Below, piece after piece: positions 7,007 to 24,105 of a DNA stretch of 64,000 nucleotides; the stretch's first letter is position 1, and every line of letters starts with the position of its first letter. The notes below the pieces were generated by a model, which was given only the letters and a program-made list of their open reading frames with translations, was not told the origin of the DNA and ran no database searches. Source of the DNA: Lutibacter sp. (GTDB lineage Bacteria; Bacteroidota; Bacteroidia; Flavobacteriales; Flavobacteriaceae); NCBI RefSeq assembly GCF_041562875.1, contig NZ_JBFFOE010000005.1, positions 454 to 64,453 of the forward strand, given 5' to 3'. The translations under genes were made by a program, and so were the position numbers.

Positions 7007-7206
7007 CTTCTTTTTTAATTGGATTGCAAATTTACAATATTTTCTTGAGAATACATTTTAAGAACATTAAATTACTTTTAACATACTAACTATCAGTGAT
7101 AAAAATTGTTTTATTTATTTATTTTTAAAAATTTAGATTTTTAAGGTAGGGTTTTTAAGTATTTAATTGTTTAGTATAAATACTAAACAACTTTTAAAAT
7201 AAAATC

Positions 7207-7946: not shown

Positions 7947-9035
7947 ATGAAACTAAGTAAGATAAATTCAAAAAACATAAAAAAAGCTATTATTTGTAAA
8001 AACGTAACTAGCACACTTATAAATAAGCAAATTAAAAAAACCTACATGCCAAAAGCTGGAGATGTGGCTATTTTTAAAGTAAAAGACATAGGGAAACATA
8101 ACCGAATTCAATCTACAAATGGTAATAACAAGTATATTTTACCAGGTGATCTAATTATGGGAGCATTTGGAAATAGGTATGCAACAGAGCAAATGGAAGG
8201 TTATGTACCAGATACTTACCACAACTCCTATCATATATTAGGTCAAGGAGGTGCTATAGGAATTTTAAAAAGTATACATACCAAATTTGAATTAGTTGGC
8301 CCTACCACTTTAAGTTTGATAGGTTATCTGGTTCATGAAAATGGTGAAGTCATTAATACTAAATACCTGAATGATGAAATCACAACTTATAAATCTATTC
8401 CATTAAATACGGATCCAAAAGTTATATTATCTTTAGGGACTAGTATGGATAGTGGTAAAACTACTTCAGCAGCATTTCTTGCAAGGGGTCTAAAATTAGC
8501 AAAAAAAAAACCTGCCTATATCAAATTAACAGGAACTGTTTACACTAAAGATAAAAATATGGTTAGTGATTATGGCGCTACTATTTCTTTAGATTTTTCT
8601 CATTTTGGATTTCCTTCTACTTACATGTGCTCTACACATGAACTTTTAGATTTATATCAAAATTTAATTGATTATGTGAAACCCTATAATCCAGATTATA
8701 TTATAGTTGAAATAGCAGATGGCCTTTTACAAAGAGAAACATATGCCTTAATTCATCATAAAAATTTCATGAATAAAGTCTCAGGAGCCTTATTTTCGTC
8801 ACTAGATAGCATGAGCGCCATCGCCGGAGCAGACATGCTCACAGAATTAGGATGTAATGTAATTGGTGTAACAGGACTTTTCACTATTAGCCCATTATTA
8901 GTAGATGAAGTGAAACAAAAATCTAATTATCATGTTTTAACAGAAGAAAATTTGACATCGAAAGAAATAATTGATACTTTAAATAAAAAAATAAACTACT
9001 TGGAATTTGAAAACAAAATGGCAGTTAATAGCTGA
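7947..9035 (+). CDS. DUF1611-like P-loop NTPase (GNRYA subfamily)
   Basis: GAFGNRYATEQMEG, deviant Walker A GTSMDSGKTT, IKLTGT, DFSHFGFPSTY, IVEIADGLLQRET. Confidence 0.7.
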   Translation: MKLSKINSKNIKKAIICKNVTSTLINKQIKKTYMPKAGDVAIFKVKDIGKHNRIQSTNGNNKYILPGDLIMGAFGNRYATEQMEGYVPDTYHNSYHILGQGGAIGILKSIHTKFELVGPTTLSLIGYLVHENGEVINTKYLNDEITTYKSIPLNTDPKVILSLGTSMDSGKTTSAAFLARGLKLAKKKPAYIKLTGTVYTKDKNMVSDYGATISLDFSHFGFPSTYMCSTHELLDLYQNLIDYVKPYNPDYIIVEIADGLLQRETYALIHHKNFMNKVSGALFSSLDSMSAIAGADMLTELGCNVIGVTGLFTISPLLVDEVKQKSNYHVLTEENLTSKEIIDTLNKKINYLEFENKMAVNS

Positions 9036-10704
9036 TTTTATAAAAGGAAACAAATTACTTGCTATTGTAGCATTTATAAGTGGTTTATTCTATAACGTTA
9101 TTATATTATTAATTCCTGTTAGCCTTGGGCATTTTTATGAGTTCAACTTTGGGTTCTCATCACATCGTTTAAGGTTATTAGAATCAATCATATTTATCAA
9201 TACTGAAAGTTTTAATGAATTTTTAGCCTTCTTTATTGGTCTTATTTTAATTCGTTTTGTTTTTGAATTTATTAACAGGTATATAATTTCAATTATTGGA
9301 GAACGTTTTGCTAAAAATCTTAGAGAGCAGCTTTTTGAACATCAACTTCATATAAGCACACATATCTATGACCAAAAAGGAATTGGAAAATATTTGCTTC
9401 GGTACAGTGGGGACCTGAAAAGTATTCAAAATTATGTTACTAATGGGTTATTTAAGTTTACGCAAGACCTCATGTTAATTGTAATTTTAATCATTACAAT
9501 TTCTTATATAGATTTCATTTTTGGTTTTATTGTGGCAATTTCTATAGGTGTTTTAATACTCCTATTATTTTTTATGAATCACCTTCTTTATAAAATATCT
9601 GTAAGTCGCAGAAATCAACGGGCGGCAATGTTAACATTTGTTAACACTCGATTAAGGGCAATACTTTCAATAAAAGCTTTTAATAAATACACCCCTGAAA
9701 AAAATAAATATATTAAGCGTTCAGAAAATCTTTATACCGTTGGTAAAAAATACCAGCAAACAGTAAGTGTTATTCAATCTATTATTCCTGCTGTAACCTA
9801 CTTAATGCTAGCTTTACTGATGTGGTATGTGTATTATTTAAAGAGCCATAAAGAAAATGTATTTAATCAATCTGCACTGTTAATTTTAATTCTATTAATC
9901 ATATCCTTTCTTCCTATTCTAAGGCGTACACTAAGAGTAAGCATTATTTGGAGACTCGGAAATATTTCATTTGAAAAACTGCTTAACATCTTTTCTTTGA
10001 AAGCTGAAAATAAGGTTTCCTTTAAAAAAATTAATTTGTCTGAAAAGGAAATAAATTTAAAAAATATTTATTTCCATTATTTCAATTCAAAAAACATAAT
10101 TTTTAACAAGCTAACGATTACATTACTTCCAAAAAAACTAACGGTGATAGTCGGTGGTTCAGGAACAGGTAAAAGCACATTCATCAATTTATTACTAAAA
10201 ATTCATCAACCAACTAAAGGAACTATACATTTTGGGAAATATAGTTACAATAAGTTAGCTGAAAAATCCATTAGAAAAAATATAACAGTCATTTCAAGTG
10301 ATTTTCCGCTATATGGAAGAACCGTGTATGAAGCTATTGCATATAGCAGATCAAAAGAAGCAGCAATTAAAGTTGCTAAAATTTTAAAAGAACTACAACA
10401 ATTTGAAGATATAAAAATTAGACTTGAATTGAAAGATACTATTGGCGATTTAGGAAACAAACTTACCAGTGGTCAAAAAAAGATTTTAATGTATTGTAGA
10501 GCCCTTCTAACTAATAAGCCATGGATTATTATTAACCAACCTTTTAATGATTTAGATCCCAACACTATAAATCATTTAAAGAATACTCTAAACTCGTTAA
10601 AGCCTACTAAAACCATTATAATAATGGATACTACTATTCCTGAAGGATTGAAAGTTGATCATATTTATACTCTTAAAAATAGTGTTTTAACGAAACAGAA
10701 ATAG
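9007..10704 (+). CDS. ABC exporter (TM domain + NBD) with degenerate catalytic motifs; TTG start overlapping the upstream gene
   Basis: N-terminal multi-TM ABC_membrane region. Walker A is GGSGTGKS and the signature is LTSGQ. Walker B reads IIINQP and the H-loop reads IMDT. Confidence 0.8.
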   Translation: MKTKWQLIADFIKGNKLLAIVAFISGLFYNVIILLIPVSLGHFYEFNFGFSSHRLRLLESIIFINTESFNEFLAFFIGLILIRFVFEFINRYIISIIGERFAKNLREQLFEHQLHISTHIYDQKGIGKYLLRYSGDLKSIQNYVTNGLFKFTQDLMLIVILIITISYIDFIFGFIVAISIGVLILLLFFMNHLLYKISVSRRNQRAAMLTFVNTRLRAILSIKAFNKYTPEKNKYIKRSENLYTVGKKYQQTVSVIQSIIPAVTYLMLALLMWYVYYLKSHKENVFNQSALLILILLIISFLPILRRTLRVSIIWRLGNISFEKLLNIFSLKAENKVSFKKINLSEKEINLKNIYFHYFNSKNIIFNKLTITLLPKKLTVIVGGSGTGKSTFINLLLKIHQPTKGTIHFGKYSYNKLAEKSIRKNITVISSDFPLYGRTVYEAIAYSRSKEAAIKVAKILKELQQFEDIKIRLELKDTIGDLGNKLTSGQKKILMYCRALLTNKPWIIINQPFNDLDPNTINHLKNTLNSLKPTKTIIIMDTTIPEGLKVDHIYTLKNSVLTKQK

Positions 10705-10706
10705 TA

Positions 10707-11885
10707 TTAATATTTAAATGTACCAAACTCGCTTTTAATCGTTAACTTTTTAGTTTTTGAAGCTTCTACCCTACCTATAATTTGCGCATCCACATTAAAA
10801 CTTTTTGAAATTTCAATTATATCACCCGCTATTTCTGGAGAAACATATAATTCCATTCTGTGGCCGCAGTTAAAAACCTGATACATTTCTTTCCAGTCGG
10901 TTTTAGACTGCTCTTGAATCAACTTAAATAGTGGTGGAATTGTAAACATATTATCTTTCACTATATGCAAATTATCTATAAAGTGAAGAATTTTGGTTTG
11001 TGCACCTCCGCTACAATGCACCATTCCATGAATTTCTTTTGAAGTAAATTTTTTAAGAATTTCTTTAATAATAGGTGCATATGTTCTTGTTGGAGAAAGC
11101 ACCAATTTACCTGCGTTTATAGGCGAATTTTTAACAGAATCCGTTAATTTAACATTTCCAGAATACACTAACTCTTGTGGAACTGCTGCATCAAAACTTT
11201 CTGGATATTTAGCAGCTAAATAGTTATGAAACACATCATGACGAGCAGATGTTAAGCCATTAGACCCCATTCCTCCATTATAATCCTTTTCATAGGTTGC
11301 TTGTCCAAAAGAAGCTAAACCAACAATTACATCGCCTGGCTTTATGTTTGCGTTATTAATAACATCTTTTCTTCTCATTCTAGCTGTAACTGTAGAATCA
11401 ACAATTATGGTTCTAACCAAATCGCCAACATCGGCAGTTTCTCCACCCGTTGAATGAATTTCTACGCCAAACTTTTTTAAATCTTGTAATAATTCTTCAG
11501 TACCATTTATAATTTCAGAAAGTACTTCTCCAGTAATTAAATTTTTATTTCTCCCAATTGTAGATGACAATAAAATGTTTTCTGTTGCCCCCACACAAAT
11601 TAAATCGTCAATATTCATAATTAATGCGTCTTGAGCTATTCCTTTCCAAACAGAAACATCACCTGTTTCTTTCCAATACATATACGCCAACGAAGATTTT
11701 GTACCTGCACCATCTGCATGCATGATTAAACAATAATCTTCATCATTTGTTAAATAATCAGGAACAATTTTACAAAATGCTTTAGGAAATAATCCTTTAT
11801 CTACATTCTTAATAGCATTATGTACATCTTCTTTTGAAGCTGAAACACCTCTTTGGCTATATCTTTTACTAATTTCTGAGCTCAT
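10707..11885 (-). CDS. purM: Phosphoribosylformylglycinamidine cyclo-ligase (AIR synthase), Bacteroidota type
   Basis: YSQRGVSASKEDVH, HADGAGTKS, GGETADVG, MGSNGLTSARH, VHCSGGAQ, FNCGHRME. Confidence 0.93.
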   Translation of the reverse strand: MSSEISKRYSQRGVSASKEDVHNAIKNVDKGLFPKAFCKIVPDYLTNDEDYCLIMHADGAGTKSSLAYMYWKETGDVSVWKGIAQDALIMNIDDLICVGATENILLSSTIGRNKNLITGEVLSEIINGTEELLQDLKKFGVEIHSTGGETADVGDLVRTIIVDSTVTARMRRKDVINNANIKPGDVIVGLASFGQATYEKDYNGGMGSNGLTSARHDVFHNYLAAKYPESFDAAVPQELVYSGNVKLTDSVKNSPINAGKLVLSPTRTYAPIIKEILKKFTSKEIHGMVHCSGGAQTKILHFIDNLHIVKDNMFTIPPLFKLIQEQSKTDWKEMYQVFNCGHRMELYVSPEIAGDIIEISKSFNVDAQIIGRVEASKTKKLTIKSEFGTFKY

Positions 11886-11940: not shown

Positions 11941-11980
11941 TATAAAAAAACCGAATGAAATCTCATTCGGTTTTTTTATA
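11941..11980. terminator. Intrinsic terminator ending the curli operon
   Basis: Perfect 18-bp inverted repeat TATAAAAAAACCGAATGA-aatc-TCATTCGGTTTTTTTATA. Confidence 0.9.
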
Positions 11981-11993
11981 CTTCATTAACAAA

Positions 11994-13499
11994 TTATTCC
12001 CAATCAGGCATTATTGAATCTCTAAATAATTCTAATCTATCATTATTACCCGCTATACTCATTTTATAAATTGATTTAGTAGAAATACCATCATTTGAAG
12101 TATTTACAAAAATTACTTCTGCTTCATTTGGTGAAAATCTAGGATCTAAATCATTAGTTCCTGCCGTTTTATTTAACGAAATATCTGTTGCTTCATCAGC
12201 AACAAAATCATATACAAAAATATGAGTGTCCAATTGTCTGTTATCCGCATTTTCATATTCTGAAATATCATACGTGTACATTAACAATTTATTATCAACA
12301 GAAATATTAAGCCCTCCAGCTGCTCCATTAACTCCTGATAAAATAGTTGTTAATGTAGTTCCTTCCATATTAATAGTATAAATAGAAACATTAAAACCTG
12401 TTACATCATTTGTTTTTAGTGCTATTATACTTTCATCATTACTCCAGTCACATTCAGTTATAAAACTTCCATCAGTTGTTTGATAAATTTGTTGAAGACC
12501 GCTTCCATCTTTATTAATAATATATAATTTATCATAGTGCGAATACAACAATCTATCACCATTAGATGACCAAGAGAAATCTATTTCATTAAAATTAAAT
12601 CCAGTAACAGATACACCTGAAGTTACTTGAGAAACATTTGAACCATCTTGTTTCATGGTAAATAAATGGGTTTCATTATTATATATACGTAAGAAAGCAA
12701 TTAAATCAGATGCTTGATTTTTTCTTGGTCTCCAACTATTTTGATCATCCGTTGTTAATTGAACCTCATTTTCAGTTAAATTTGTTGTTTCATTATAATT
12801 TGCAGAATAAATTACATTGTTATTATTTGCGCTTTTTTGAACATAAAAATATCTATTCCCAGAGTTTATTTTAGTTTTAAAAGAGTTTACTAAACTTAAA
12901 ACTTCTGGATTTATATTATCTGTAGCAGCAACTTGCCAAAAGTATTTAACACCATATTTTAAATCTGATACAACATAAGTTGTGTCTATAAGATCTTCAA
13001 CCTTAATAATATCGTTATTAATATCATTTTTAAGCTCCAATCTATATGTTATTTCGTCAGATTCAGGATCTTTTGATGACCATATTAATTCTACAGAAAT
13101 CTCTTGATCTTCAATACCATCAATTGGAGTCAACAAAATTGGAGTTGATGGCGGTCTATTTAGAGCTGTTTCATCCTCCATTTCAAAAATCACATTAACC
13201 TCTAAATTCATTGTAACAGTTGCAGGCTCAAACGAAGTTAAGTAATTTTCTTTGGTAGCACTCACAGAATAATCGCCAGCTTCAACATCATGTATACTAA
13301 AATAACCCTCAATATCAGAAAATACAGTGTTATTAGATGGAGACAGTGTTATTTTAGCATTTTCAATAGGGTTAAAACTATTTGCTTCCACTACCCTACC
13401 TGTAATAGTTCCTAATCCTACTAAATCTACAGTATCTTCATTACAGCTTAAAAATAAACTTAATACAAATACCAATACTATATTAAATGTTCTTTTCAT
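11994..13499 (-). CDS. Curli-locus lipoprotein: carboxypeptidase-regulatory-like domain, FN3-like domain and TolB/PD40-like beta-propeller
   Basis: Lipobox LFLSC. GTITGRVVEA..SDIEGYF is a CarboxypepD_reg-like domain. YGVKYFWQVAATD is FN3-like. Repeated PRKN/FSWSSNG/CDWSND/PRFSPNE blades follow. Confidence 0.8.
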   Translation of the reverse strand: MKRTFNIVLVFVLSLFLSCNEDTVDLVGLGTITGRVVEANSFNPIENAKITLSPSNNTVFSDIEGYFSIHDVEAGDYSVSATKENYLTSFEPATVTMNLEVNVIFEMEDETALNRPPSTPILLTPIDGIEDQEISVELIWSSKDPESDEITYRLELKNDINNDIIKVEDLIDTTYVVSDLKYGVKYFWQVAATDNINPEVLSLVNSFKTKINSGNRYFYVQKSANNNNVIYSANYNETTNLTENEVQLTTDDQNSWRPRKNQASDLIAFLRIYNNETHLFTMKQDGSNVSQVTSGVSVTGFNFNEIDFSWSSNGDRLLYSHYDKLYIINKDGSGLQQIYQTTDGSFITECDWSNDESIIALKTNDVTGFNVSIYTINMEGTTLTTILSGVNGAAGGLNISVDNKLLMYTYDISEYENADNRQLDTHIFVYDFVADEATDISLNKTAGTNDLDPRFSPNEAEVIFVNTSNDGISTKSIYKMSIAGNNDRLELFRDSIMPDWE

Positions 13500-13513
13500 T
13501 TTGATTTTTTTAA

Positions 13514-14908
13514 CTATTCAAAAAATTTCGCTTTTACACTTTTATATGGCTTTCCAATATAAATATTCAACCCAACTCCAAATCTCCAGAAATAATCATT
13601 TCTTTTCCCATTAACCAACAAATCTAATTTATCATTAAACATTAAATTTTGTTCGCCAAAAATTTTAATTCCAATATTATTAACGGGTAAATATTCTAAA
13701 CCTAAACCATATTGAAATTTTGTATACAACTTAATATCGCGTGGATTTGGAATAGCAACACCTAAACCTGCATATATAAATGGGGAGAAACTATCATAAG
13801 GCAGTAAATTATATTCAAAATTTGTGTCTAAAGACACAAATCCTTCTTTAAATACTTGTTCATTTTCCAATCTGAAATATCCCATTCCTAAATTTAAACT
13901 AAGATTTGGGTTTTTTAAAAAAATCTTTATCGACGAATTTATTGCTATTCCTTCTTTAGGATTTGAATAATCACCATCAATAAGTGCGGTACCCCCAGAA
14001 ATACTTAATCCAAACTTACCTCTTCTATCTTCTAATTTTCTATCTAATAGCGCTGTTGATTCTAACTCTTCTTTTTCAATTAAATATTTTTCTTTTACTA
14101 ATTTAATTGTTTCTTCGCCTCCTTTTGGAACCCATAGGCCATCAATAATACCTTCAACAATTAAAACTTCAACTGCTTTATCAATTGCTTCTTTAACTGC
14201 CAATTGAGCTGGCTCATTTTTAGTAACACCTGTTTCTACTTCTAATAACCTTTTTATGTCTACATATCTAAACAAATTAGCTGAAATACCTTGCGATAAA
14301 ATAGTTTTTGAAACATATACATTTTTTAATATTCTACCACTTGAAGTTGAAACAGCTCTCAAATAAATTGTTATTCTATCTTGTCTATATTCTGTAGAAC
14401 CACCAACTCCAAAGTACCTAGCCCCAGAACCTCCAGTAATTATATTTGAATCATACGAAACAACTCCACCCTCTAATATTATTCCTGCAAACAATAATGG
14501 AGGTATTGAAGTAGTTTGATCTTCATTTGCATCTTTAGCATATTCTTGGCGAGTTGACCTTATTATTTGCCTTTCATTTAATAAGTTTCCAATATTTTCT
14601 CTCTCAATGGGTTTAAACCATTTAGATTCTTCTAAAGATTTTAATAATATTGAAGTCCCTCCTTGAGTAACTGCAGTACTGAATGTTGAACCATTTTCAA
14701 CTAATTTATATTGCCCCGTTTGATCTCTAAACTTATAAACACCAACAATTGTTTCATTTAATGGCAGTATGGTATCTAATATACTTTTTCTTGATGTGTT
14801 TTCTCCTATTCTGGCTTTACTCGCATTAAAAGGCTGATTAAAATAAGCCCCACAGCTTGTTAATACTAATAAAATAGAACAAATAATAAATTTGAAAAAC
14901 TTTCTCAT
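13514..14908 (-). CDS. csgG: Curli secretion channel CsgG with an additional C-terminal outer-membrane beta-barrel domain
   Basis: Lipobox LVLTSC and CsgG motifs GVYKFRDQTGQYK, STAVTQGG, IERENIGNLLNERQII, EGGVVSYDSN, YRQDRITIYLRAVS. About 160 extra aa carry OmpA-type strands (SPFIYAGLG, FQYGLGLEY, RFGVGLNIYIG). Confidence 0.93.
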   Translation of the reverse strand: MRKFFKFIICSILLVLTSCGAYFNQPFNASKARIGENTSRKSILDTILPLNETIVGVYKFRDQTGQYKLVENGSTFSTAVTQGGTSILLKSLEESKWFKPIERENIGNLLNERQIIRSTRQEYAKDANEDQTTSIPPLLFAGIILEGGVVSYDSNIITGGSGARYFGVGGSTEYRQDRITIYLRAVSTSSGRILKNVYVSKTILSQGISANLFRYVDIKRLLEVETGVTKNEPAQLAVKEAIDKAVEVLIVEGIIDGLWVPKGGEETIKLVKEKYLIEKEELESTALLDRKLEDRRGKFGLSISGGTALIDGDYSNPKEGIAINSSIKIFLKNPNLSLNLGMGYFRLENEQVFKEGFVSLDTNFEYNLLPYDSFSPFIYAGLGVAIPNPRDIKLYTKFQYGLGLEYLPVNNIGIKIFGEQNLMFNDKLDLLVNGKRNDYFWRFGVGLNIYIGKPYKSVKAKFFE

Positions 14909-14928
14909 AGATTATAGATTTGTTATAT

Positions 14929-15339
14929 TTAATTTGGTATTATTATTTGAGTCTGTTCGCCCGTTGTAGTATCTAAAATATTAACAGATAAGCCATTACT
15001 TGAAGGGGTGATTTCTACAACCAAAGAGCCAAAAACAAAAGTACCAACAGACAACCCTTCGTCTCCAAATTGTTGTTGAAACAAATCTTGTGATAATGAA
15101 TTTAACAACTGTCTATTTAAACTTTCTGTAAAATTCTCTAAATCTGTTGCTTGAGTGAAATCAAATCCTGAATCTTCTTCAAAACTATTTTGGGCATTAG
15201 CCGAAGCCAACAACTGCTGATAATTAAAAGTGTCTCCACCAAAAAAAGGGTTAATTGGCTTATAAACAATATTTTGAGAAAAAACAAAACTAGAAAAACA
15301 AACAAATAGTACGGTAATTATTAATTTTAACTTTTTCAT
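14929..15339 (-). CDS. csgF: Curli assembly protein CsgF
   Basis: Signal peptide followed by the hallmark VYKPINPFFGGDTFNYQQLLASANAQN. Confidence 0.93.
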   Translation of the reverse strand: MKKLKLIITVLFVCFSSFVFSQNIVYKPINPFFGGDTFNYQQLLASANAQNSFEEDSGFDFTQATDLENFTESLNRQLLNSLSQDLFQQQFGDEGLSVGTFVFGSLVVEITPSSNGLSVNILDTTTGEQTQIIIPN

Positions 15340-15360
15340 ACTTAAATTTACTAAAATATT

Positions 15361-16089
15361 TTATATTCTACTATTTTTAAATAACATTTTTCGTTGCTTA
15401 GAATATTGGCTTAAATTCTGTAAAGAAATTTTAACATTCGATTTTAAAAACTCTTCATCAGGTTTTGATATAAATTCAAATAACACTCTATCATCAACCT
15501 TAACTGATATAATACTACTAGTCCCAAAATATGGTTTTTCTGCAATGGTAATAATAAAAGGATATTGTGTTCCTGAAGTTAAATATTCCTGATAAAAATA
15601 GTCGTGAAAATCTTTACCAATTTTTGTAAGTACTTCATCTATAACAATACCTTTTAACACAAAATCGGCTTCTTTTACTATTTTTTTTTGTGCTTGCTGT
15701 TGTTTTTGAGGGAGTATGTATATTGAATCTTTTGAAACTAATATATTTTCATGTTTTACAAATAAATAAATACGCAAATCTTCATCTTCATTTAAATTTA
15801 AACGAATTTCAGAAACAGTTTTACTTTCTTCAGGATTTAAAGAGAATTCGCCTTCTTGTTTATTACTAGAATAATTTCCTGAAGCATTTTTTTTTAAGGC
15901 TACTAAATTGTAGTATAAATTATTTTTAAAAAGTGGTTCTTCATTTTCAATCTGAGCTCTTATTAAAATTAAATTATCAGATTCCTGAATATTAATTTTA
16001 CCTTTAACAGCTTCATTTAATTGTGAATACACTTGGTTAAAACTCAACAACAAACAACATAAAACAATATGTATTTTCAGTTGGCTCAT
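15361..16089 (-). CDS. csgE: Curli assembly protein CsgE with an N-terminal CsgH-like domain
   Basis: C-terminal GIVIDEVLTKIGKDFHDYFY..ITIAEKP is CsgE-like. The N-terminal beta-rich domain has KKNASGNYSSNKQEGEFSLNPEE. It sits between csgB and csgF. Confidence 0.8.
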   Translation of the reverse strand: MSQLKIHIVLCCLLLSFNQVYSQLNEAVKGKINIQESDNLILIRAQIENEEPLFKNNLYYNLVALKKNASGNYSSNKQEGEFSLNPEESKTVSEIRLNLNEDEDLRIYLFVKHENILVSKDSIYILPQKQQQAQKKIVKEADFVLKGIVIDEVLTKIGKDFHDYFYQEYLTSGTQYPFIITIAEKPYFGTSSIISVKVDDRVLFEFISKPDEEFLKSNVKISLQNLSQYSKQRKMLFKNSRI

Positions 16090-16092
16090 AGC

Positions 16093-16545
16093 CTAATAAT
16101 TCTTTATAATTAAGGTTTTAAAATCTGATTTTTGAACAATACTAATATTATTAATGATTGAATTCTCTCCATAAATTAGAAGATTATTTGAATTACCTTG
16201 TTGAACTATATTAAAATTGGAAGATGTATTATTGTAATAGTTGATAAAATTGTAATAATTGCTATTTCCTAATTGATTAACCGTTTGAGAATCTGCAACA
16301 TTTTGTTTAATATCAATTTGATTGTTATTCCCTATTTGGTTTAAAGTAACAGAATTACTTTGGGCTTGTTTATTATTTATTGGAAGTGCAACATTGCTTT
16401 CAAGCCAAGAAGACTCTTTATTTAATTGAAAGTATTGATTTATAATGTGCGTATTTTCATCTGTAATTTCCTGAGCATTTCCAGTAAAGAAAGTTAAATT
16501 GAACAGTATAGAAAGTATAACTAATAGTATATGAGGATTTTTCAT
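16093..16545 (-). CDS. csgB: Minor curlin / nucleator (CsgB-like) 1
   Basis: Signal peptide, short curlin repeats (LNQIGNNN, VNQLGNSN, IVQQGNSN) and a basic final repeat QKSDFKTLIIKNY. Confidence 0.75.
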   Translation of the reverse strand: MKNPHILLVILSILFNLTFFTGNAQEITDENTHIINQYFQLNKESSWLESNVALPINNKQAQSNSVTLNQIGNNNQIDIKQNVADSQTVNQLGNSNYYNFINYYNNTSSNFNIVQQGNSNNLLIYGENSIINNISIVQKSDFKTLIIKNY

Positions 16546-16571
16546 AGTTTTAATGATTTTTCATATGATAT

Positions 16572-16579
16572 CAAATTTA
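16572..16579 (-). promoter_or_regulatory. Bacteroidota -7 promoter box for csgB1-csgE-csgF-csgG-lipoprotein
   Basis: TAAATTTG on the minus strand matches TAnnTTTG, 27 nt upstream of the csgB1 ATG. Confidence 0.5.
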
Positions 16580-16581
16580 AG

Positions 16582-16610
16582 AAAAAAGAGGGAATTATCC
16601 CCTCTTTTTT
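16582..16610 (-). terminator. Intrinsic terminator after curlin 1
   Basis: AAAAAAGAGGG-aattatc-CCCTCTTTTTT. Confidence 0.85.
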
Positions 16611-16695
16611 TGTAATAAATTGTTGCTTAAATGTTTAACTAATTTTAAACAGCCAAATTTTAAATTAATACTCTAAATAATATTTGTTAAAAATA

Positions 16696-17637
16696 CTATT
16701 GAATACCCAAACTATTTTGTTGCACACAAGCTGTATTATAATTACCCATTTGATTAACTGTACTATAATTCCCTGCAGAACCAACACTATTAGCAGTTTG
16801 CTCAGTATAAGAAGCGTTACCCATACCATTTTGATAAACATCACTCACATTCCAACCTGTTGTCCCTTCGGTTTGAGTTAAACAATTCTTGTTATTTGTT
16901 CCATCTTGGTAAACAGTAGAAATATTTGTTGAACCGAATAATCCAATAGCATATGATCCAGCATTTTGCGTTTCAGAAGATGTATTTCCAGATCCATATT
17001 GAGTAGTAGTTGCTCTATTTAAACTTCCATTTTGTGTTTGGTTAACTGCATTATTATCTCCGTCTTGGTATATATATGCGGTACTTCCAGAGGCTCCATC
17101 ATTAGGCCCTGACGATTGATACTGAATAGCATCATTATTATCACCAACTTGAATTGTATGCGCCGAATTATTATCATAAAACTGAGTTTGTGAAGATCCG
17201 TTACCTAAACCTACTTGAGTAACTCTAGCCCAGTTGCTTTCGGCATAACCAGCACCAACTAATTGTTTTGCATAGTTTGAACTTCCAGATTGCCAAACAA
17301 TACTTATGTTAGAATCTCCAAATTGTTCAACATCAGAAACGTTATTATTACCATCTTGGTGAATCCAAGATTGATTATAAGACCCTCCATAACCAAATTG
17401 ATCGTCAGCACCATCTTGATTTACATTACTTAAATTTCCTGTACCGTATTGTAAAACACTTGCGAAATTCCCTTCACCATCTTGGCCGATGCCACTTACA
17501 TTATCACTTCCTTCATGATATTGCATGTCTACTTGTTGTACTTCACAATCATTGCAAGGAGCCCAACCACCTTGTGCAAATAAAGAACTTGAAGCAAATA
17601 AAAATGCTACACCTAAAAATAAATTTAATTTTTTCAT
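16696..17637 (-). CDS. csgA: Major curlin (CsgA-like) paralogue 1, 313 aa, acidic
   Basis: Signal peptide, then about 11 curlin repeats (Q-x-G-x-x-N-x-S/A-x-V-x-Q). No T9SS C-terminal domain. Confidence 0.88.
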   Translation of the reverse strand: MKKLNLFLGVAFLFASSSLFAQGGWAPCNDCEVQQVDMQYHEGSDNVSGIGQDGEGNFASVLQYGTGNLSNVNQDGADDQFGYGGSYNQSWIHQDGNNNVSDVEQFGDSNISIVWQSGSSNYAKQLVGAGYAESNWARVTQVGLGNGSSQTQFYDNNSAHTIQVGDNNDAIQYQSSGPNDGASGSTAYIYQDGDNNAVNQTQNGSLNRATTTQYGSGNTSSETQNAGSYAIGLFGSTNISTVYQDGTNNKNCLTQTEGTTGWNVSDVYQNGMGNASYTEQTANSVGSAGNYSTVNQMGNYNTACVQQNSLGIQ

Positions 17638-17861
17638 AATAATAAAATTTTAAACGTTAGTAAATTTGTAAATAATAATTAAATTTCATAAAAATTTATA
17701 GGGGACTATAACTACTTTAAAAATATGTACAAATACATATGAATGAATGTCTCTATAAACTTCTTACTTGGGGTGTAAAATTTTGTGGGGTGTAAAAATT
17801 AATTTTAATTTATTTTAGAACAAATAAAATATATAGTACTCTACACTTATTTAGTATGGGT

Positions 17862-17916
17862 CTAAATTAAATATAAAAACCTTAATTTCAATATATTAAT
17901 TATTGAAATTTGCAAA
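17862..17916 (-). promoter_or_regulatory. Curlin 1 promoter: TAATTTAG -7-like box plus upstream TTTGCAAA palindrome
   Basis: The same two elements at identical spacing precede all three curlins. Confidence 0.6.
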
Positions 17917-18056
17917 ACGTAATATTTATTTAATGAACAGTATGTAATATCACTTTAGTTACATAAAACACATTTTAAGTTAAATAAAAGACTAATTCAC
18001 CTTAAATTACTTTCTTTTTAGCTGTAATTTATTAACTTATTTTTAGAAATTGAAAA

Positions 18057-18078
18057 GCTATAACAATGAAGTTATAGC
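18057..18078 (-). terminator. Terminator after CsgB-like 2
   Basis: GCTATAAC-aatgaa-GTTATAGC, followed on the minus strand by TTTT. Confidence 0.6.
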
Positions 18079-18130
18079 AGCAGAAAGAGATATACAAGAA
18101 TGTATTGATTTATTAATACTGATTTTATAA

Positions 18131-18580
18131 TTAGTAATTTTTAATAATTAAGGTTTTAAAATCAGATTTTTGAATAATGCTAATATTATTAATTATTGAG
18201 TTTTCTCCATAAATTTGTAGATTATTAGCATTTCCCTGTTGAATGATATTAAAATTGGAAGGTGTATTATTGTAATAATTAATAAAATTGTAATAATTGT
18301 TATTCCCTAATTGACTAACTGTTTGAGAGTCTGCCACATTTTGTTTAATATCAATTTCATTGTTATTACCTATTTGGTTTAAAGTAATAAAATTACTTTG
18401 CTCTTGTTTATTATTATTTGTAGTTGGAGTTCTTTTATTTTCAAGTAAAGCAGATTCATTATTCAATTGAAAATATTGATTTATAATATAGGTATTTTCA
18501 TCTGTTTGTTGAGCATTACTATTAAAAGAAGTTAAATTAAATAGAAGTAATAAAATAAACATAAAGTAAGAAGTTTTCAT
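18131..18580 (-). CDS. csgB: Minor curlin / nucleator (CsgB-like) 2
   Basis: Close paralogue of 16093-16545. The two share QYFQLN, IDIKQNVADSQTV, NYYNFINYYNNT and QKSDFKTLIIKNY. Confidence 0.75.
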   Translation of the reverse strand: MKTSYFMFILLLLFNLTSFNSNAQQTDENTYIINQYFQLNNESALLENKRTPTTNNNKQEQSNFITLNQIGNNNEIDIKQNVADSQTVSQLGNNNYYNFINYYNNTPSNFNIIQQGNANNLQIYGENSIINNISIIQKSDFKTLIIKNY

Positions 18581-18613
18581 GATATTTAGAATTTTTATTT
18601 TATTTTTAAAAAT

Positions 18614-18647
18614 AAAAAAGGGAAGAGAAGAATTCTCTCCCCTTTTT
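18614..18647 (-). terminator. Intrinsic terminator after curlin 2
   Basis: AAAAAAGGGAAGAGA-agaat-TCTCTCCCCTTTTT imperfect hairpin with a T-tract on the minus strand. Confidence 0.75.
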
Positions 18648-18667
18648 ATTAAATAATTTACAAATAC

Positions 18668-19648
18668 CTAGAAAGGCATAAAAGCAGTAGATTGAGTTAC
18701 CAAAGCATGGTTACCCATACCAACTTGATCAACAAAACTTGTGTTCATACCACCCCAAAAAGCATCTTGAGTTACACAGGCACTATTAAAAACACCTAAT
18801 TGACTAATAGTTGAAGCGTTCATTCCCATAAAACCTGCATCTTGATTTACATCTGCGAAATTATAACTTCCAACTTGAGATATGTTACTAATGTTTGTTC
18901 CTCCAAAGGCATCTTGAGTTACACAAGCCAAATTATATCCACCAAAAAATCCTCCAATTTGATTAATAAATGAAGTATTCATACCCCATCCATAAGTAGC
19001 TTGATCACTAACTGCAGTATTTCCCCAACCAGTTTGATAAGAAGTTGCAAAATTTGCACCTCCTACTTGATCTTGTTTTGACTCGTTGTCAATTCCCATT
19101 TGAACTATAGAAGCATAATTAGGAATTGGCATAAACCAATAAGAAGGATTAAACTGATTTTGTTCTGCATAGTTACCATTACCAACTTGCATCACAGTTG
19201 CATTGTTTAAATAACCGTTTTGAGTTTGGAAAGATAAATTTCCAATTCCAGATTGAGTTGCAAGTGCAGAGTTATACCCTGTTCCCCAAGGAATAAGATT
19301 TCCACTTACTTGTTTTGCAAAATTAAAAGAACCTGTTTGGTTAATTACGCCAAAATCCATAAATCCATGTTGTTCAGTAATGGCAGTATTTCCATTACCT
19401 ATTTGATTTACATAAGCATTTTCAAATCCAAATTGAGTCACCCTTGAATAGTTTCCTAAACCAACTTGATGAACCTCAGCATCATTATATCCATAAATCT
19501 GATCAACAATACTTAAATTTCCAAATGGCATTCCATATTCTGGACTCAATTGCTGAATTGAACAACCATCACATGTTTGTTGTTGTATTTGTGAAAACAA
19601 CATACTTGTAGCGAATAATAGCGCTACAGCTAATAATAATTTTTTCAT
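18668..19648 (-). CDS. csgA: Major curlin (CsgA-like) paralogue 2, rich in aromatic residues, Gly and Met
   Basis: ATG 19648 (MKKLLL..) has the same start context as the other two curlins. About 12 curlin repeats. Confidence 0.88.
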   Translation of the reverse strand: MKKLLLAVALLFATSMLFSQIQQQTCDGCSIQQLSPEYGMPFGNLSIVDQIYGYNDAEVHQVGLGNYSRVTQFGFENAYVNQIGNGNTAITEQHGFMDFGVINQTGSFNFAKQVSGNLIPWGTGYNSALATQSGIGNLSFQTQNGYLNNATVMQVGNGNYAEQNQFNPSYWFMPIPNYASIVQMGIDNESKQDQVGGANFATSYQTGWGNTAVSDQATYGWGMNTSFINQIGGFFGGYNLACVTQDAFGGTNISNISQVGSYNFADVNQDAGFMGMNASTISQLGVFNSACVTQDAFWGGMNTSFVDQVGMGNHALVTQSTAFMPF

Positions 19649-19883
19649 AATAATAAATTTTAAAATGTTAATACTCATTAAAATAATATTTCATATAAAT
19701 TTACAAGGGAAGGAACTACATTTTAAGAAATCCATTATTTAAAATAATGAGCGACTTAAAAAAAAGCTCTATAAATTTATAAAATGGGATGAAAAAACAA
19801 TTTTTTGAGGTTTAAACTGTGGAGTGAATTTAATTTTAAAGGATCCTAAAACTATAATAAGAATACACCTATAATTTCTAATA

Positions 19884-19938
19884 CTAATATACATATTAAT
19901 TTATCTTTTTAAAAGTATTCTTTTATTTTTTTTGCATA
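19884..19938 (-). promoter_or_regulatory. Curlin 2 promoter: TATATTAG plus TTTGCATA
   Basis: Homologous to the curlin 1 and 3 promoters, with the same spacing. Confidence 0.6.
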
Positions 19939-20033
19939 AAGCACACTTTTATAAACAATTGGAAACAAATGCATTCTTTTTAACACATTATGAAATGCCA
20001 CCTTATTGCAACATAATTGTTTAATCTTAAATA

Positions 20034-20063
20034 AAAAAAAGGGGGAATTACCCCCCTTTTTTT
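20034..20063 (-). terminator. Intrinsic terminator after curlin 3
   Basis: A-tract-GGGGG-aatta-CCCCC-T-tract. Confidence 0.85.
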
Positions 20064-20105
20064 GTTAAATTTTATATAATTTAATTCGGATTTCAATTAA
20101 TTATC

Positions 20106-21434
20106 TTAATGTCCACCTTCACCTCCACAGTTTCCACTTCCATCTCCTCCACCTCCGTGTTGACTTACATTAGAAGTTATTCCTGATCCATTATGAAAAA
20201 CATTACTTGTGTTTCCCATTCCTCGTTGAGTAACTTCAGAAGTATTATAGGAACCTAACTGCATTGTGTAACTTACGTTAAATTTACCGTGTTGTTCAGT
20301 TGTAGCTGTATTATTATTTCCAAACTGATTTGTTATGCTCAATCCACCATGACCATGTTGTTCTGTATTAGCAATATTATCATTACCAAATTGGTATTCC
20401 CAAGAATCATTTGAATTACCCGTTTGGAAAGTTGTTTGATCATTATCATTACCTATTTGAAGAACAAAACTTTCATTTGTTTTACTATCTTGTGTAGTTG
20501 AAGAGCTGTTGCCTTCACCAAATTGAGTTGTTGTACTAAAACTACCATTACCAGCTTGTTTTGTAAATGCCGTATTTCCATCTCCAACTTGCAACGTATA
20601 ACTTAAAACATTATGCCCTTCTTGTTCTGTAGTAGAAGTATTTCTTTCTCCAAATTGAGCTGTATAAGCATCATTTCCATTTCCTTTTTGGTCTGTAGTT
20701 TGTGTATTTCTGTATCCATCTTGGTAAACATAACTTTCATGAGCTTCAGTTACCTCACCTTCCTCAGCTGTCATTAGCTCTGGCTCATCGCTTCCACCTT
20801 CTTCTCCACCGCCTTTTTGAGATGTTGTAGATTTATTCACATACCCATTTTGATATTCATAAGCTTCATGATTTGTTCCTCTTTGGTCTACATCAGACAT
20901 GTTTCCACTTCCAAATTGATGTTGTAATGTATAATTTGATTTTCCGTGTTGTTCAGCAATAGCACTATTTTTAGTTATTCCCCAATTAGAAGCTTTTTGA
21001 ACTTGAACTGTTCTGTTTTCAGATCCTTTTTGAATTATACTTGCACTATTACCTCCCCAAGAATACCAATTTGCACCTGATTGATTTTGGATTGCTTCAT
21101 TTGCATGTCCATCTTGATCTATGCTACCAATATTATAAAAATCACGTTGTGTTTGACGTGCATAATTTCCATTAGCAACTTGCTTAATTTCCGCTGTACT
21201 CCAATGAGACCCAACCTGATCAACATTTGCTTCATTTAAATGCCCCTTTTGATCTACATTAGCAGTATTGAACCATCCAAATTGATCAATGTCAGAATCA
21301 TTTGTGTTTCCACGTTGTTCTACTGTTGAAGCATTATTTTTCCCTTGTGAATTTACATCACTGGTATTTGATTGTGCATAAATTAATGATGTTGCCATCA
21401 TTGTTATTACTAAAATAGATAATAATTTTTTCAT
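20106..21434 (-). CDS. csgA: Major curlin (CsgA-like) paralogue 3, 442 aa, charged and His-rich
   Basis: Signal peptide, about 17 curlin repeats (e.g. QxGxxNxSxxxQ), an acidic insertion and a Gly-rich tail. Confidence 0.88.
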   Translation of the reverse strand: MKKLLSILVITMMATSLIYAQSNTSDVNSQGKNNASTVEQRGNTNDSDIDQFGWFNTANVDQKGHLNEANVDQVGSHWSTAEIKQVANGNYARQTQRDFYNIGSIDQDGHANEAIQNQSGANWYSWGGNSASIIQKGSENRTVQVQKASNWGITKNSAIAEQHGKSNYTLQHQFGSGNMSDVDQRGTNHEAYEYQNGYVNKSTTSQKGGGEEGGSDEPELMTAEEGEVTEAHESYVYQDGYRNTQTTDQKGNGNDAYTAQFGERNTSTTEQEGHNVLSYTLQVGDGNTAFTKQAGNGSFSTTTQFGEGNSSSTTQDSKTNESFVLQIGNDNDQTTFQTGNSNDSWEYQFGNDNIANTEQHGHGGLSITNQFGNNNTATTEQHGKFNVSYTMQLGSYNTSEVTQRGMGNTSNVFHNGSGITSNVSQHGGGGDGSGNCGGEGGH

Positions 21435-21676
21435 AATAATAAAATTTAAATGTTAATACTAATTAAAATAATATTCCATATAAATTTATAGGGAAAATAA
21501 CTACATTTTAAGAAAGCTATTAGTTAACACATAACAATATGATAACTTTAAGCAACTTTAAAAAAGCGCTATAAACTTATAAAATGGGGATAAACAATTT
21601 TGTGAGGTTTAAACTGTGGAGTTATTTTAATCAAGAGATTAGAAATTATAAACGTATACATTTATAATTTCTAGTA

Positions 21677-21731
21677 CTAAGATAAATACTAATTTGTCAT
21701 CTTAAAAGTATTTTTTCTCATAATTTGCAAA
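21677..21731 (-). promoter_or_regulatory. Curlin 3 promoter: TATCTTAG plus TTTGCAAA
   Basis: Homologous to the curlin 1 and 2 promoters, with the same spacing. Confidence 0.6.
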
Positions 21732-21865
21732 AAGCAAGTTTTAATAAATAATTGGAAATAAAGTTATTGTTTATACGTTACTTTAATTACATAACTAATC
21801 ATTTATCAGAATAATTCAACATAAATTATTAAATATTGGATACTTAATTTTATAATTATTTAAAC

Positions 21866-21918: not shown

Positions 21919-24105
21919 TTATCTTGTAAATAATAACTCTCTATATTTAGTTAATGGCCACAACTCATCATCAATCATCAATTCTAATTTATCACAATGT
22001 AATCTAATCTCATCAAAAAATGGTTTTACTTTAAAGCAATATGCATCAGCCATTGCTTCAATATTTTCTAATTTATTTGCTTTTTTACGCGCATCAATCA
22101 TTTTATCAATTTTGGAATGTATTCCTTCAATATGCTCAGAAATTCTTTTAATTAACAAAATTTGTTCTGCAGCATGTTTTTCAAAATCTGTTCCAAAAAT
22201 TTCTTTTAAGCCCGTAACATTTTTAATTAACAAGTTTTGGTAACGAACCGCTGTTGGAACCACATGATTACCAGCAATATCACCTAAAACACGAGATTCT
22301 ATTTGAATACGCTTTGTATACTCTTCCATTTCAACTTCATAGCGTACCACAGTTTCAACCTTACTCATCACATTCATTTCTTCAAATAAATCAATTGTTT
22401 TTTTAGAAATTTTAGCTTTTAATGCCTCGGGTGTTGTTTTATTATTACTTAAACCTCTTTTCTTTGCTTCTTTTTCCCATTCAATTCCGTAACCATTTCC
22501 TTCAAATAAAATTCTTTTAGATGCTTTTATGTATTCTCTTAGTACATTAAAAACGGCTTCATCTTTCTTTAAATCTTTCGTATCTATTAATTTATCAACT
22601 TCTATTTTAAAATCTTTTAACTGTTTCGCAACTATTGTGTTTAAAACTTTCATTGGTTTTGCACAGTTAGCTGTTGAGCCAACAGCTCTAAATTCAAATT
22701 TATTACCTGTAAACGCAAATGGAGATGTTCTGTTTCTATCTGTATTGTCTAATAACACATCAGGAATTTTACCCACAACGTTTAGTTTAAGGTCTGTTTT
22801 TTCTTCAGGAGAAAGTTTTCCATTTGTTACATTCTCTAGTTCATCTAAAACTTTGGTTAATTGAGCTCCAATAAAAACTGAAATAATTGCTGGTGGTGCT
22901 TCATTAGCTCCTAATCTATGATCATTACTTGCTGATGCTATAACAGCTCTCAACAATTCTTCATTTTCATTAACAGCTTTAATTGTGTTAATAAAGAATG
23001 TCAGAAATTGAAGATTGCTCATTGGAGTTTTTCCTGGTGATAACAAATTAATACCTGTGTCTGTTGATAATGACCAGTTATTATGTTTTCCTGAACCATT
23101 TACACTAGAAAAGGGTTTTTCATGCAGTAGCACTTTAAAATGATGACGTGCAGCAACTTTTCCCATTAAATCCATTAATAATGAATTATGATCTACTGCT
23201 AAATTTGCTTCTTCATAAATAGGTGCCAATTCAAACTGGTTTGGGGCTACCTCATTATGACGTGTTTTTACAGGAATTCCCAACAACATACACTCGGTTT
23301 CCAAATCGCGCATAAAATTCAATGCTCTACCAGGAATTGAACCAAAATAATGATCATCTAACTGTTGCCCTTTTGCAGGCGAATGCCCCAATAATGTTCT
23401 ACCTGTTAACATAATGTCAGGCCTACTTTCGGCTAAAGCTTTATCTATTAAAAAATATTCTTGTTCCCAACCAAGTGACGAAGTTACTTTTTTTACATTT
23501 TTATCGAAATATTTACAAACAGCAGTTGCTGAAGAATCCAAAGCTTGTAAAGCTCTTAACAAAGGTGTTTTATTATCTAAAGCTTCCCCTGTATATGCCA
23601 CAAATATGGTTGGTATACTTAAAGTAGTACCATACACAAATGCCGGTGATGTTGGATCCCAAGCAGTGTAGCCTCTTGCTTCAAACGTATTTCTTATTCC
23701 TCCATTTGGAAAACTTGAAGCATCTGGTTCTTGTTGCACCAATTCATTTCCTCCAAATCTTTCAATAGCCATACCTCCTCCAATAGTTTCAAAAAAAGCA
23801 TCATGTTTTTCTGCAGTTGCTCCAGTTAACGGTTGAAACCAATGTGTATAATGTGTCACTCCTTTAGACATAGCCCATTCTTTCATTGCTGAAGCTACTT
23901 GATTCGCAATTTTTCGATCAATTTTAGTACCATCATCAATAGCGCTCATTACACCTTTAAAGGCATCTTTAGTTAAATATTGGCGCATTGTATTTTCATT
24001 AAACACGTTTTGACCAAATAATTCTGATCTTTTTATACTTTCAATAACTTCAACAGGTTTTCTGTTAGAAGCATCGGTTAAAGCTTGAAATCTTAATCTT
24101 GCCAT
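21919..24105 (-). CDS. glnA: Glutamine synthetase type III
   Basis: 728 aa. Motifs THYTHWFQPLTG, EPDASSFPNGG, RGYTAWD, HNEVAPNQFE, NGSGKHNNWS, RLGANEAPP, DRNRTSPFAFTGNKFEFRA. Confidence 0.96.
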   Translation of the reverse strand: MARLRFQALTDASNRKPVEVIESIKRSELFGQNVFNENTMRQYLTKDAFKGVMSAIDDGTKIDRKIANQVASAMKEWAMSKGVTHYTHWFQPLTGATAEKHDAFFETIGGGMAIERFGGNELVQQEPDASSFPNGGIRNTFEARGYTAWDPTSPAFVYGTTLSIPTIFVAYTGEALDNKTPLLRALQALDSSATAVCKYFDKNVKKVTSSLGWEQEYFLIDKALAESRPDIMLTGRTLLGHSPAKGQQLDDHYFGSIPGRALNFMRDLETECMLLGIPVKTRHNEVAPNQFELAPIYEEANLAVDHNSLLMDLMGKVAARHHFKVLLHEKPFSSVNGSGKHNNWSLSTDTGINLLSPGKTPMSNLQFLTFFINTIKAVNENEELLRAVIASASNDHRLGANEAPPAIISVFIGAQLTKVLDELENVTNGKLSPEEKTDLKLNVVGKIPDVLLDNTDRNRTSPFAFTGNKFEFRAVGSTANCAKPMKVLNTIVAKQLKDFKIEVDKLIDTKDLKKDEAVFNVLREYIKASKRILFEGNGYGIEWEKEAKKRGLSNNKTTPEALKAKISKKTIDLFEEMNVMSKVETVVRYEVEMEEYTKRIQIESRVLGDIAGNHVVPTAVRYQNLLIKNVTGLKEIFGTDFEKHAAEQILLIKRISEHIEGIHSKIDKMIDARKKANKLENIEAMADAYCFKVKPFFDEIRLHCDKLELMIDDELWPLTKYRELLFTR

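Follow-up and report, generated by a model that had tools for sequence, protein, structure and literature searches.

A curli locus with three curlins and a single export machinery in Lutibacter sp.: a common variant of a known system

In Escherichia coli and Salmonella, curli (the type VIII secretion system, T8SS) are encoded by csgBAC and csgDEFG, with a single curlin of five repeats. Here we analyze a curli locus in a stretch of 64,000 nucleotides (the window; contig NZ_JBFFOE010000005.1, positions 454 to 64,453) from a marine Lutibacter sp. of the family Flavobacteriaceae. With the enterobacterial system it shares homologues of CsgG, CsgF and CsgE, curlin-repeat subunits carrying Sec signals, a short five-repeat CsgB-like protein and a domain of the CsgC fold. 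It differs in that all genes run in one direction with the subunit genes first; CsgD is absent from the locus; the CsgC/CsgH-like domain is fused to CsgE; CsgG bears an additional eight-stranded barrel; a propeller lipoprotein has been added; and there are three curlins of ~12–17 repeats together with two csgB genes.

Curli of this general kind have been recorded before. As far as the text of two broad surveys could be searched, Dueholm (2012) described Bacteroidetes curli that lack csgC and csgD, with at most six csgA/B homologues and 22 repeats (PMC3521004), and a 2025 re-survey of GTDB genomes listed CsgA/B plus CsgEFG as a leading composition, widespread in Bacteroidota (PMC12822426). The Lutibacter locus belongs to the same class. 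Sleutel (2023) reported genomes with more than two CsgA-like copies, the frequency falling towards 14 and the maximum being 30 (PMC10192328); that study treats protein architecture rather than locus organization or regulation. In the searched text of the two surveys neither a CsgH-like domain in CsgE, nor a CsgG barrel fusion, nor a conserved lipoprotein, per-curlin terminator or [curlin–terminator–csgB] module is reported; Taylor (2016), in the text searched, mentions CsgH sub-families in Bacteroidetes and no fusion. Within the literature searched, the fused domains, the conserved lipoprotein, the repeated [curlin–terminator–csgB] modules typical of Lutibacter and a leader specific to that genus appear undescribed. 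As such, the expanded locus represents a frequent form of a known system and is largely ordinary.

One machinery and three curlins

We think it likely that the locus consists of one machinery operon and three tandem-duplicated curlin units, each with its own promoter-like element, leader and terminator, and all served by a single CsgG. The operon would supply a CsgB-like nucleator, CsgE with its CsgC/CsgH-type domain, CsgF, CsgG with a small outer-membrane barrel, and the propeller lipoprotein. Tandem duplication upstream of it would have given three units, each composed of a promoter-like element, a leader of ~220–240 nt, a curlin gene with a Sec signal and an intrinsic terminator, and one duplication would also have taken a [terminator + csgB] segment along. 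Each curlin would be transcribed from its own promoter, csgB and the machinery by read-through or from a weak, unrecognized promoter; all three curlins are probably used, and the products, passing through the one CsgG channel, may build amyloid fibres that differ or are mixed in composition. What was observed directly, and is documented below, are the gene content, the folds, the duplications and terminators, the conservation, and the presence of one machinery only.

Nine co-directional open reading frames (ORFs) occupy the minus strand from 21434 down to 11994 (Table 1), all of them where an earlier note on this DNA had placed them. Pfam and NCBIfam assignments together with a genome-wide search bear out that note's recognition of a curli locus with one csgEFG set: this is a genuine chromosomal T8SS cluster, and elsewhere in the genome (2.99 Mb, 96% complete) there is no second copy of csgE, csgF, csgG, the lipoprotein gene or a curlin. 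The reported absence of csgD from the window extends to the whole contig, which carries no gene with a LuxR/GerE (CsgD-like) domain; the four GerE genes of the genome sit on other contigs.

CsgG (Pfam E 1.1e-61) has the lipobox LTSC, and its AlphaFold2 (AF2) model matches the CsgG structure 6L7C (E 4e-17, 39% identity). The model contains a confident C-terminal barrel of eight strands (residues 299–451) that matches NspA, OmpA and OmpX. In CsgF (E 6.5e-36) the mature N-terminus, QNIVYKPINPFFGG, carries an NPxFGG-type motif. CsgE (E 4.2e-13) is made of two domains: its family profile matches CsgE 2NA4 at positions 156–250 (8.2e-11) and CsgC 2Y2T at 63–115 (1.5e-3), and the NCBIfam CsgH model gives 36 bits (cut-off 35) and matches 38 of 55 family members. 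The AF2 model (pLDDT 90.5) shows a seven-strand sandwich at 28–125 and the CsgE domain at 149–239; the top Foldseek matches of the model in the PDB are CsgH 2N59 (4.8e-7) and CsgC 2XSK (1e-5, TM 0.81). Profile and model together identify a CsgC/CsgH-fold domain fused to CsgE, with a putative anti-amyloid role. That csgC is missing, as the earlier note had it, is correct for a separate gene and incorrect for the fold. CsgE homologues with an extra region (~395–398 aa, as against the usual ~250 aa) were seen in two loci (L061, 11746–12942; L119, 6899–8086).

The three long proteins match the Pfam model Curlin_rpt with E values of 8e-29, 5e-18 and 5e-17 (62–100 bits; cut-off 20.7). QxGxxN half-motifs number 21, 13 and 15 in the 442-, 326- and 313-aa curlins, over ~375, 276 and 272 aa and at a spacing of 11 or 22 aa, which corresponds to ~17, 12 and 12 rungs of 22 aa; the 17, 12 and 11 repeats first estimated were roughly right. 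All three are intact and divergent, as had been proposed: the bodies have no similarity at the DNA level and are 36–43% identical as proteins, and each has a Sec signal peptide, a full repeat array, a leader and a terminator. The start of csgA2 was set at 19648 (326 aa) because conserved sequence directly precedes that ATG; the longest ORF starts at 19678 (336 aa). The csgA3 N-terminus has the canonical family form (AQSNTSDV). In csgA1 and csgA2 it carries a CxxC (17545–17580 and 19555–19590), and two further Cys lie at N-x-A-C-V-x-Q positions in the last repeats. An N-terminal CxxC, like this Cys pattern as a whole, is common in Lutibacter and occurs in none of 94 curlins from other genera. 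The three curlins end in curlin repeats or, in one case, a Gly-rich tail, and NCBIfam and Pfam scans (E ≤ 0.1) find in them no C-terminal sorting domain (Por_Secre_tail type) of the type IX secretion system (T9SS).

Two local features of csgA3 were also noted. An acidic, non-repeat insert, GGGEEGGSDEPELMTAEEGEVTEAHE (aa ~207–232; 20739–20816), divides its repeat array into two, and the Gly-rich C-terminal tail, QHGGGGDGSGNCGGEGGH (20106–20165), departs from the usual family ending QxGxGNxSxVxQSN.

The 149- and 150-aa proteins match Curlin_rpt weakly when searched singly (E 0.025–0.08). A profile of 48 of their family homologues matches the solved curlins 8C50 (from Pontibacter korlensis; 1.5e-10) and 8ENQ (7.7e-9). 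They are short curlins of ~5 repeats, distinguished by a last repeat that ends in IIKNY or IIRNF, and we regard them as putative CsgB-type nucleators. csgB2 is 77% identical to csgB1. A csgB tree resolves two deep clades (100/100 support each), one of which unites the internal csgB genes of L. flavus, L. maritimus and MAG13; the other contains a group (96/89) formed by csgB1 and csgB2 of the window and the terminal csgB of another Lutibacter locus (G355). Because both window copies group together, csgB2 is a recent copy, or a conversion, of the csgB1 type.

Table 1. Features of the curli locus (positions of the window)
Feature	Positions	Strand	Remarks
csgA3 promoter-like element	21677..21707	-	TTTT-N19-TATCTTAG, Bacteroidetes -33/-7 geometry
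csgA3 leader (putative, ~240 nt)	21435..21676	-	helix arms 21580-21569 and 21491-21480; C-rich blocks, e.g. CTCCACAGTTTAAACCTC at 21621-21604
csgA3	20106..21434	-	442-aa curlin, ~17 repeats
Intrinsic terminator 3' of csgA3	20034..20063	-	terminator-like hairpin
csgA2 promoter-like element	19884..19914	-	TTTT-N19-TATATTAG
csgA2 leader (putative)	19649..19883	-	helix arms 19780-19769 and 19706-19695
csgA2	18668..19648	-	326-aa curlin, ~12 repeats
Intrinsic terminator, csgA2/csgB2 gap	18615..18647	-	15-bp stem
csgB2	18131..18580	-	149-aa short curlin, putative nucleator
Weak terminator-like hairpin 3' of csgB2	18057..18078	-	
csgA1 promoter-like element	17862..17892	-	ATTG-N19-TAATTTAG
csgA1 leader (putative)	17638..17861	-	helix arms 17764-17753 and 17701-17690
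csgA1	16696..17637	-	313-aa curlin, ~12 repeats
Intrinsic terminator, csgA1/csgB1 gap	16582..16610	-	
Duplicated segment [terminator + csgB1]	16094..16621	-	79% identity over 536 nt with 18132-18659
csgB1	16093..16545	-	150-aa short curlin, putative nucleator; heads tightly packed machinery operon
csgE	15361..16089	-	two domains: CsgC/CsgH fold (aa ~28-125) and CsgE (aa ~149-239)
csgF	14929..15339	-	N-terminal NPFFGG motif
csgG (lipoprotein)	13514..14908	-	C-terminal 8-stranded OmpA/NspA-like barrel (aa ~299-451)
Lipoprotein gene, last in operon	11994..13499	-	CarboxypepD_reg, FN3-like and TolB-like propeller domains
Intrinsic terminator ending machinery operon	11946..11975	-	

Terminators, duplicated flanks and leaders

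Each curlin is followed by a strong hairpin with a stem of 10–15 bp and a T tract, in agreement with the suggestion that every copy has a terminator of its own. One of these, with its 15-bp stem, lies between csgA2 and csgB2; the coupling of these two genes proposed in the earlier note is therefore not that of a simple bicistron. The upstream regions of the three curlins, also predicted to be homologous, are so with nhmmer E values of 1e-70 to 1e-86 among copies; blastn and nhmmer were used here since identity from global alignment is uninformative for upstream regions (~0.75 for any AT-rich pair). Self-comparison with blastn aligns 21775–21419 with 19982–19633 (77% over 367 nt), that is, the upstream region and first codons of A3 and A2, while A1 shares just its proximal 110–134 nt with the other two. 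A further duplicated segment (18659–18132 against 16621–16094) comprises exactly terminator plus csgB.

A hidden Markov model (HMM) of the three window leaders finds matches directly upstream of 20 of 38 curlins from other species of the genus, with no further match in those loci; curlins of all three classes have it. The curlin leader is specific to Lutibacter: in 58 other genera, HMMs of 3 and of 23 copies match nothing. The alignment of 23 copies shows a -33-like/-7-like pair, TTTG-N19-TAnnTTAG, which fits the known geometry of Bacteroidetes promoters. The composite motif TTTG-N18-20-TAnnTT[TA]G occurs upstream of 16 of 38 Lutibacter curlins (0.8 in shuffles), clustered 225–275 nt before the ATG, and is the only promoter-like motif found to be enriched. 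The three window curlins share this geometry, their -7 boxes ending 242, 235 and 224 nt ahead of the ATG. A scan for the sigma-70 consensus gave no excess (78 matches, 71 in shuffles).

On the 3' side of the promoter-like pair the alignment contains four or five conserved C-rich blocks, as well as two blocks complementary to each other, AUAAGUUUAUAG and CUAUAAAUUUAU. These two form a covarying 12-bp helix in which 95% of cells are paired, compared with 25–53% in slid controls. Compensatory changes affect five of its pairs, as many as in 1 of 500 shuffles, and G·U pairs far exceed other mismatches. These data favour a transcribed, partly structured 5' leader. The leaders match no family in Rfam 15, where sub-threshold matches fall at the terminator hairpins only.

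A weak fourth copy of the leader (nhmmer E 2.8e-6 and 0.007) was found on another contig of the genome (C14:241–753, minus strand), upstream of a lipoprotein gene (MKNLFKILLGLFLIGFAVSCNKDEATE...) that is cut by the contig end; this gene may share regulation with the curlins. A more speculative idea, which we hold to be unlikely, is that the ~230-nt leader is a new cis-regulatory RNA that would act as one post-transcriptional switch for all curlin paralogues, and possibly for the surface lipoprotein too. Together with the two csgB clades such a switch could set nucleator–subunit pairs, or fibre types, on the one CsgG pore.

Lutibacter and the wider family

CsgF was found in 32 of 61 Lutibacter species. 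The 21 complete loci of the genus (the window included) contain one curlin in ten cases, two in eight, three in two and four in one, and seven have two or three csgB genes. Near-identical csgB pairs like that of the window recur in two other species (L108 and L093); csgB duplication is typical of Lutibacter. A close counterpart is L. flavus DSM 27993 (NZ_FZNX01000007; L111/L120), in which GSIII (glutamine synthetase III) is followed by a [CxxC curlin–csgB] module, an A3-type curlin, [A2-type–csgB], [A1-type–csgB]–E–F–G–lipoprotein and purM. From the A3-type curlin onwards the order is that of the window; the additional upstream module makes the L. flavus locus, with four curlins and three csgB, a superset. 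The two also differ in the csgB that follows A2, which in L. flavus belongs to the deeply divergent clade and in the window is a near copy of csgB1. Flanking housekeeping genes are 86–89% identical between these genomes, the machinery 68–82%, and the curlins 82% (A3), 51% (A1) and 42% (A2).

The three types are old, retained paralogues: L. flavus and other Lutibacter species have orthologues of the A1, A2 and A3 types in unchanged order. Having been kept in this way, they are probably all used. L. profundi LP1 (Lupro_11990–12015; G322/L110) has a locus of the same type, with csgEFG and the lipoprotein; it differs in having two curlins (both with CxxC) and one csgB. The genome paper for that strain mentions six curli genes at the level of annotation (PMC5219744).

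Beyond the genus, a survey of 301 Flavobacteriaceae genera, one representative each, gave CsgF in 59, and the 20 kb around all 58 matches other than that of Lutibacter were compared. All 58 have csgE (~250 aa), csgF, csgG (450–515 aa) and a homologous lipoprotein of ~500 aa. Curlins lie upstream of the machinery in 56, and a single csgB adjoins csgE in 56; by csgB HMM, 56 loci have exactly one csgB-like gene, one locus (L088) has two and one has none. The number of curlins per locus (n = 59, window included) is zero in two, one in 37, two in 11, three in four, four in three, five in one and nine in one; at least two, with a range of two to nine, are present in 19 of the 58 other genera (33%), and homologous upstream regions among paralogues are found at other multi-curlin loci as well.

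Across the family, terminator-like hairpins stand behind 65 of 97 curlins (67%) and 41 of 59 lipoprotein genes, compared with 1 of 48 csgB, 1 of 60 csgE, 1 of 59 csgF and 0 of 59 csgG. Gaps within csgB–E–F–G–lipoprotein are 10–15 nt, and that between curlin and csgB (median 127 nt) is mostly taken up by the hairpin. Because hairpins follow curlins and almost never csgB, csgE, csgF or csgG, the division into curlin on the one hand and csgB–E–F–G–lipoprotein on the other is the family standard. The suggestion that the locus is unusual does not survive this comparison: the core layout is standard in all 58 other genera, and at least two curlins occur in 19 of these and in 11 of the 21 complete Lutibacter loci. 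The earlier note had allowed that the architecture might already be the standard one, and in view of the curlin survey and of published multi-copy curlins (PMC3521004, PMC10192328) this is largely the case.

In the window GSIII (21919–24105) and purM (10707–11885) enclose the locus. Because these flanks recur across genera (44 of 59 loci have GSIII on the upstream side, and 42 have purM on the downstream side), the curli locus occupies a fixed, ancestral site in the family, from which it has been lost repeatedly, and is not mobile.

Alternative explanations and implications

Several points weigh against three curlin units that are each separately promoted. Both csgB genes start 34–36 nt past a terminator, without a full promoter-like -33/-7 pair; the machinery may for this reason be expressed by read-through from a curlin promoter, in which event the units would not be fully independent and the hairpins would in part be attenuators that set subunit-to-machinery ratios. 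Across the family the exact motif TAnnTTTG is not enriched upstream of curlins (36 observed, 28 expected), nor is it upstream of csgB. The assignment of CsgB is built on size, position and repeat pattern, not function. Searches for RNA data covering the window returned DNA metagenome contigs only, of which one set, aligned to it, showed nothing beyond assembly fragments and strain variants; vent metatranscriptomes contain none of the L. profundi locus, and no transcript, protein or fibre data were found for Lutibacter sp. or its relatives.

The read-through reading can be carried further: with all hairpins acting as attenuators, transcription from curlin promoters would continue into csgB and csgEFG, giving much subunit and little machinery, and the curlins would not be independently controlled. 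Chaperone–usher pilus operons treat their major-subunit genes in just this way. We regard this as a real possibility while leaning against it. The short spacing of csgB behind the hairpins, in the window as in the family, speaks in its favour, and three homologous leaders suggest common rather than separate control; set against these are the promoter-like element conserved at a fixed distance from each curlin, the strength of the hairpins, and a TAAATTTG box 34 nt upstream of csgB1. It is also conceivable, if somewhat unlikely, that the direct-repeat flanks matter chiefly as substrates for recombination, by which cassettes would be gained, lost or exchanged and fibres varied within populations; flank homology would then reflect gene conversion, not regulatory constraint. 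The grouping of csgB2 with csgB1 rather than with the deeply divergent copies at internal positions in L. flavus, L. maritimus and MAG13, the near-identical csgB pairs of two other species, the variable number of modules and a more abundant, ~9% diverged csgA3 variant in two metagenomes all fit such exchange. Yet the leader has been kept across species and pairs in its helix have changed in compensation, pointing to selection on function and not to homogenization alone, and the sole metagenomic junction (19664 to 20124) is anchored by 28–31 nt on one side.

That only one curlin is functional, the rest being recent duplicates, redundant or in decay, or else silent cassettes, seems improbable. 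Curlin number does vary from one to four between species, and bodies at 36–43% identity stand between flanks at 77–79%; but all three genes are intact with their signal peptides, repeat arrays, leaders and terminators, the A1, A2 and A3 types persist in order in several species, and A3 is as conserved between the window and L. flavus as the machinery. We give almost no credence to the idea that the long repeat proteins are not curli substrates but adhesins that leave the cell by a different pathway, such as T9SS, and are found beside the csg operon by chance. T9SS does serve many repeat adhesins in Bacteroidota; here no T9SS C-terminal domain was detected, the Curlin_rpt repeats score above the Pfam cut-off, and linkage to csgB–EFG is strict in 56 of the 58 other genera. 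Three curlin units beside one machinery operon remain the reading we prefer.

That several curlins feed a single pore is neither new nor rare, and in this respect the locus changes little. What could matter are testable entry points to non-enterobacterial curli biology, which is experimentally almost unstudied: a putative anti-amyloid domain in the pore cap, a pore subunit that carries a barrel of its own, a seventh protein that is conserved, curlin–nucleator modules in repeated form, and a conserved leader whose helix has statistical support. Loci of these types are also present in type strains available in culture (L. flavus DSM 27993, L. maritimus DSM 24450, L. profundi LP1). For T8SS, the means by which one channel stays specific among several aggregation-prone subunits has been listed among the open questions (PMC13721041).

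A few individual loci and sequences deserve mention. L088 (7459–12975), the sole non-Lutibacter genus with a second csgB-like gene (at 8386, 147 aa), has after that gene a stand-alone CsgH-like ORF (8826–9215) matching the N-domain of CsgE only; the arrangement looks like a partial duplication of curlin–csgB–csgE(N). In L053 curlin and csgB are absent and csgE is reduced to a 61-aa fragment (6901–7086) adjoining GSIII, with csgF, csgG and the lipoprotein gene intact: this is a decayed curli locus. L058 has csgB and no recognizable curlin. Curlins of ~500 aa elsewhere in the family (L069, L072, L074 and L077–L080) carry a CxxC at the C-terminus instead of the N-terminus. The csgA3 variant mentioned above (47 differences in 541 nt; 20800–21340) comes from metagenome runs X6 and X12, where its depth is 5–10 times above that of contigs identical to the window, which indicates a related strain, with a diverged curlin, that is the more abundant there. 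Finally, a 452-kb contig of a Campylobacterota metagenome-assembled genome (L131; NVVN01000001.1, labelled Sulfurovum sp. NORP62) encodes a CsgG 70% identical to that of the window and is probably a mis-binned Flavobacteriaceae contig.

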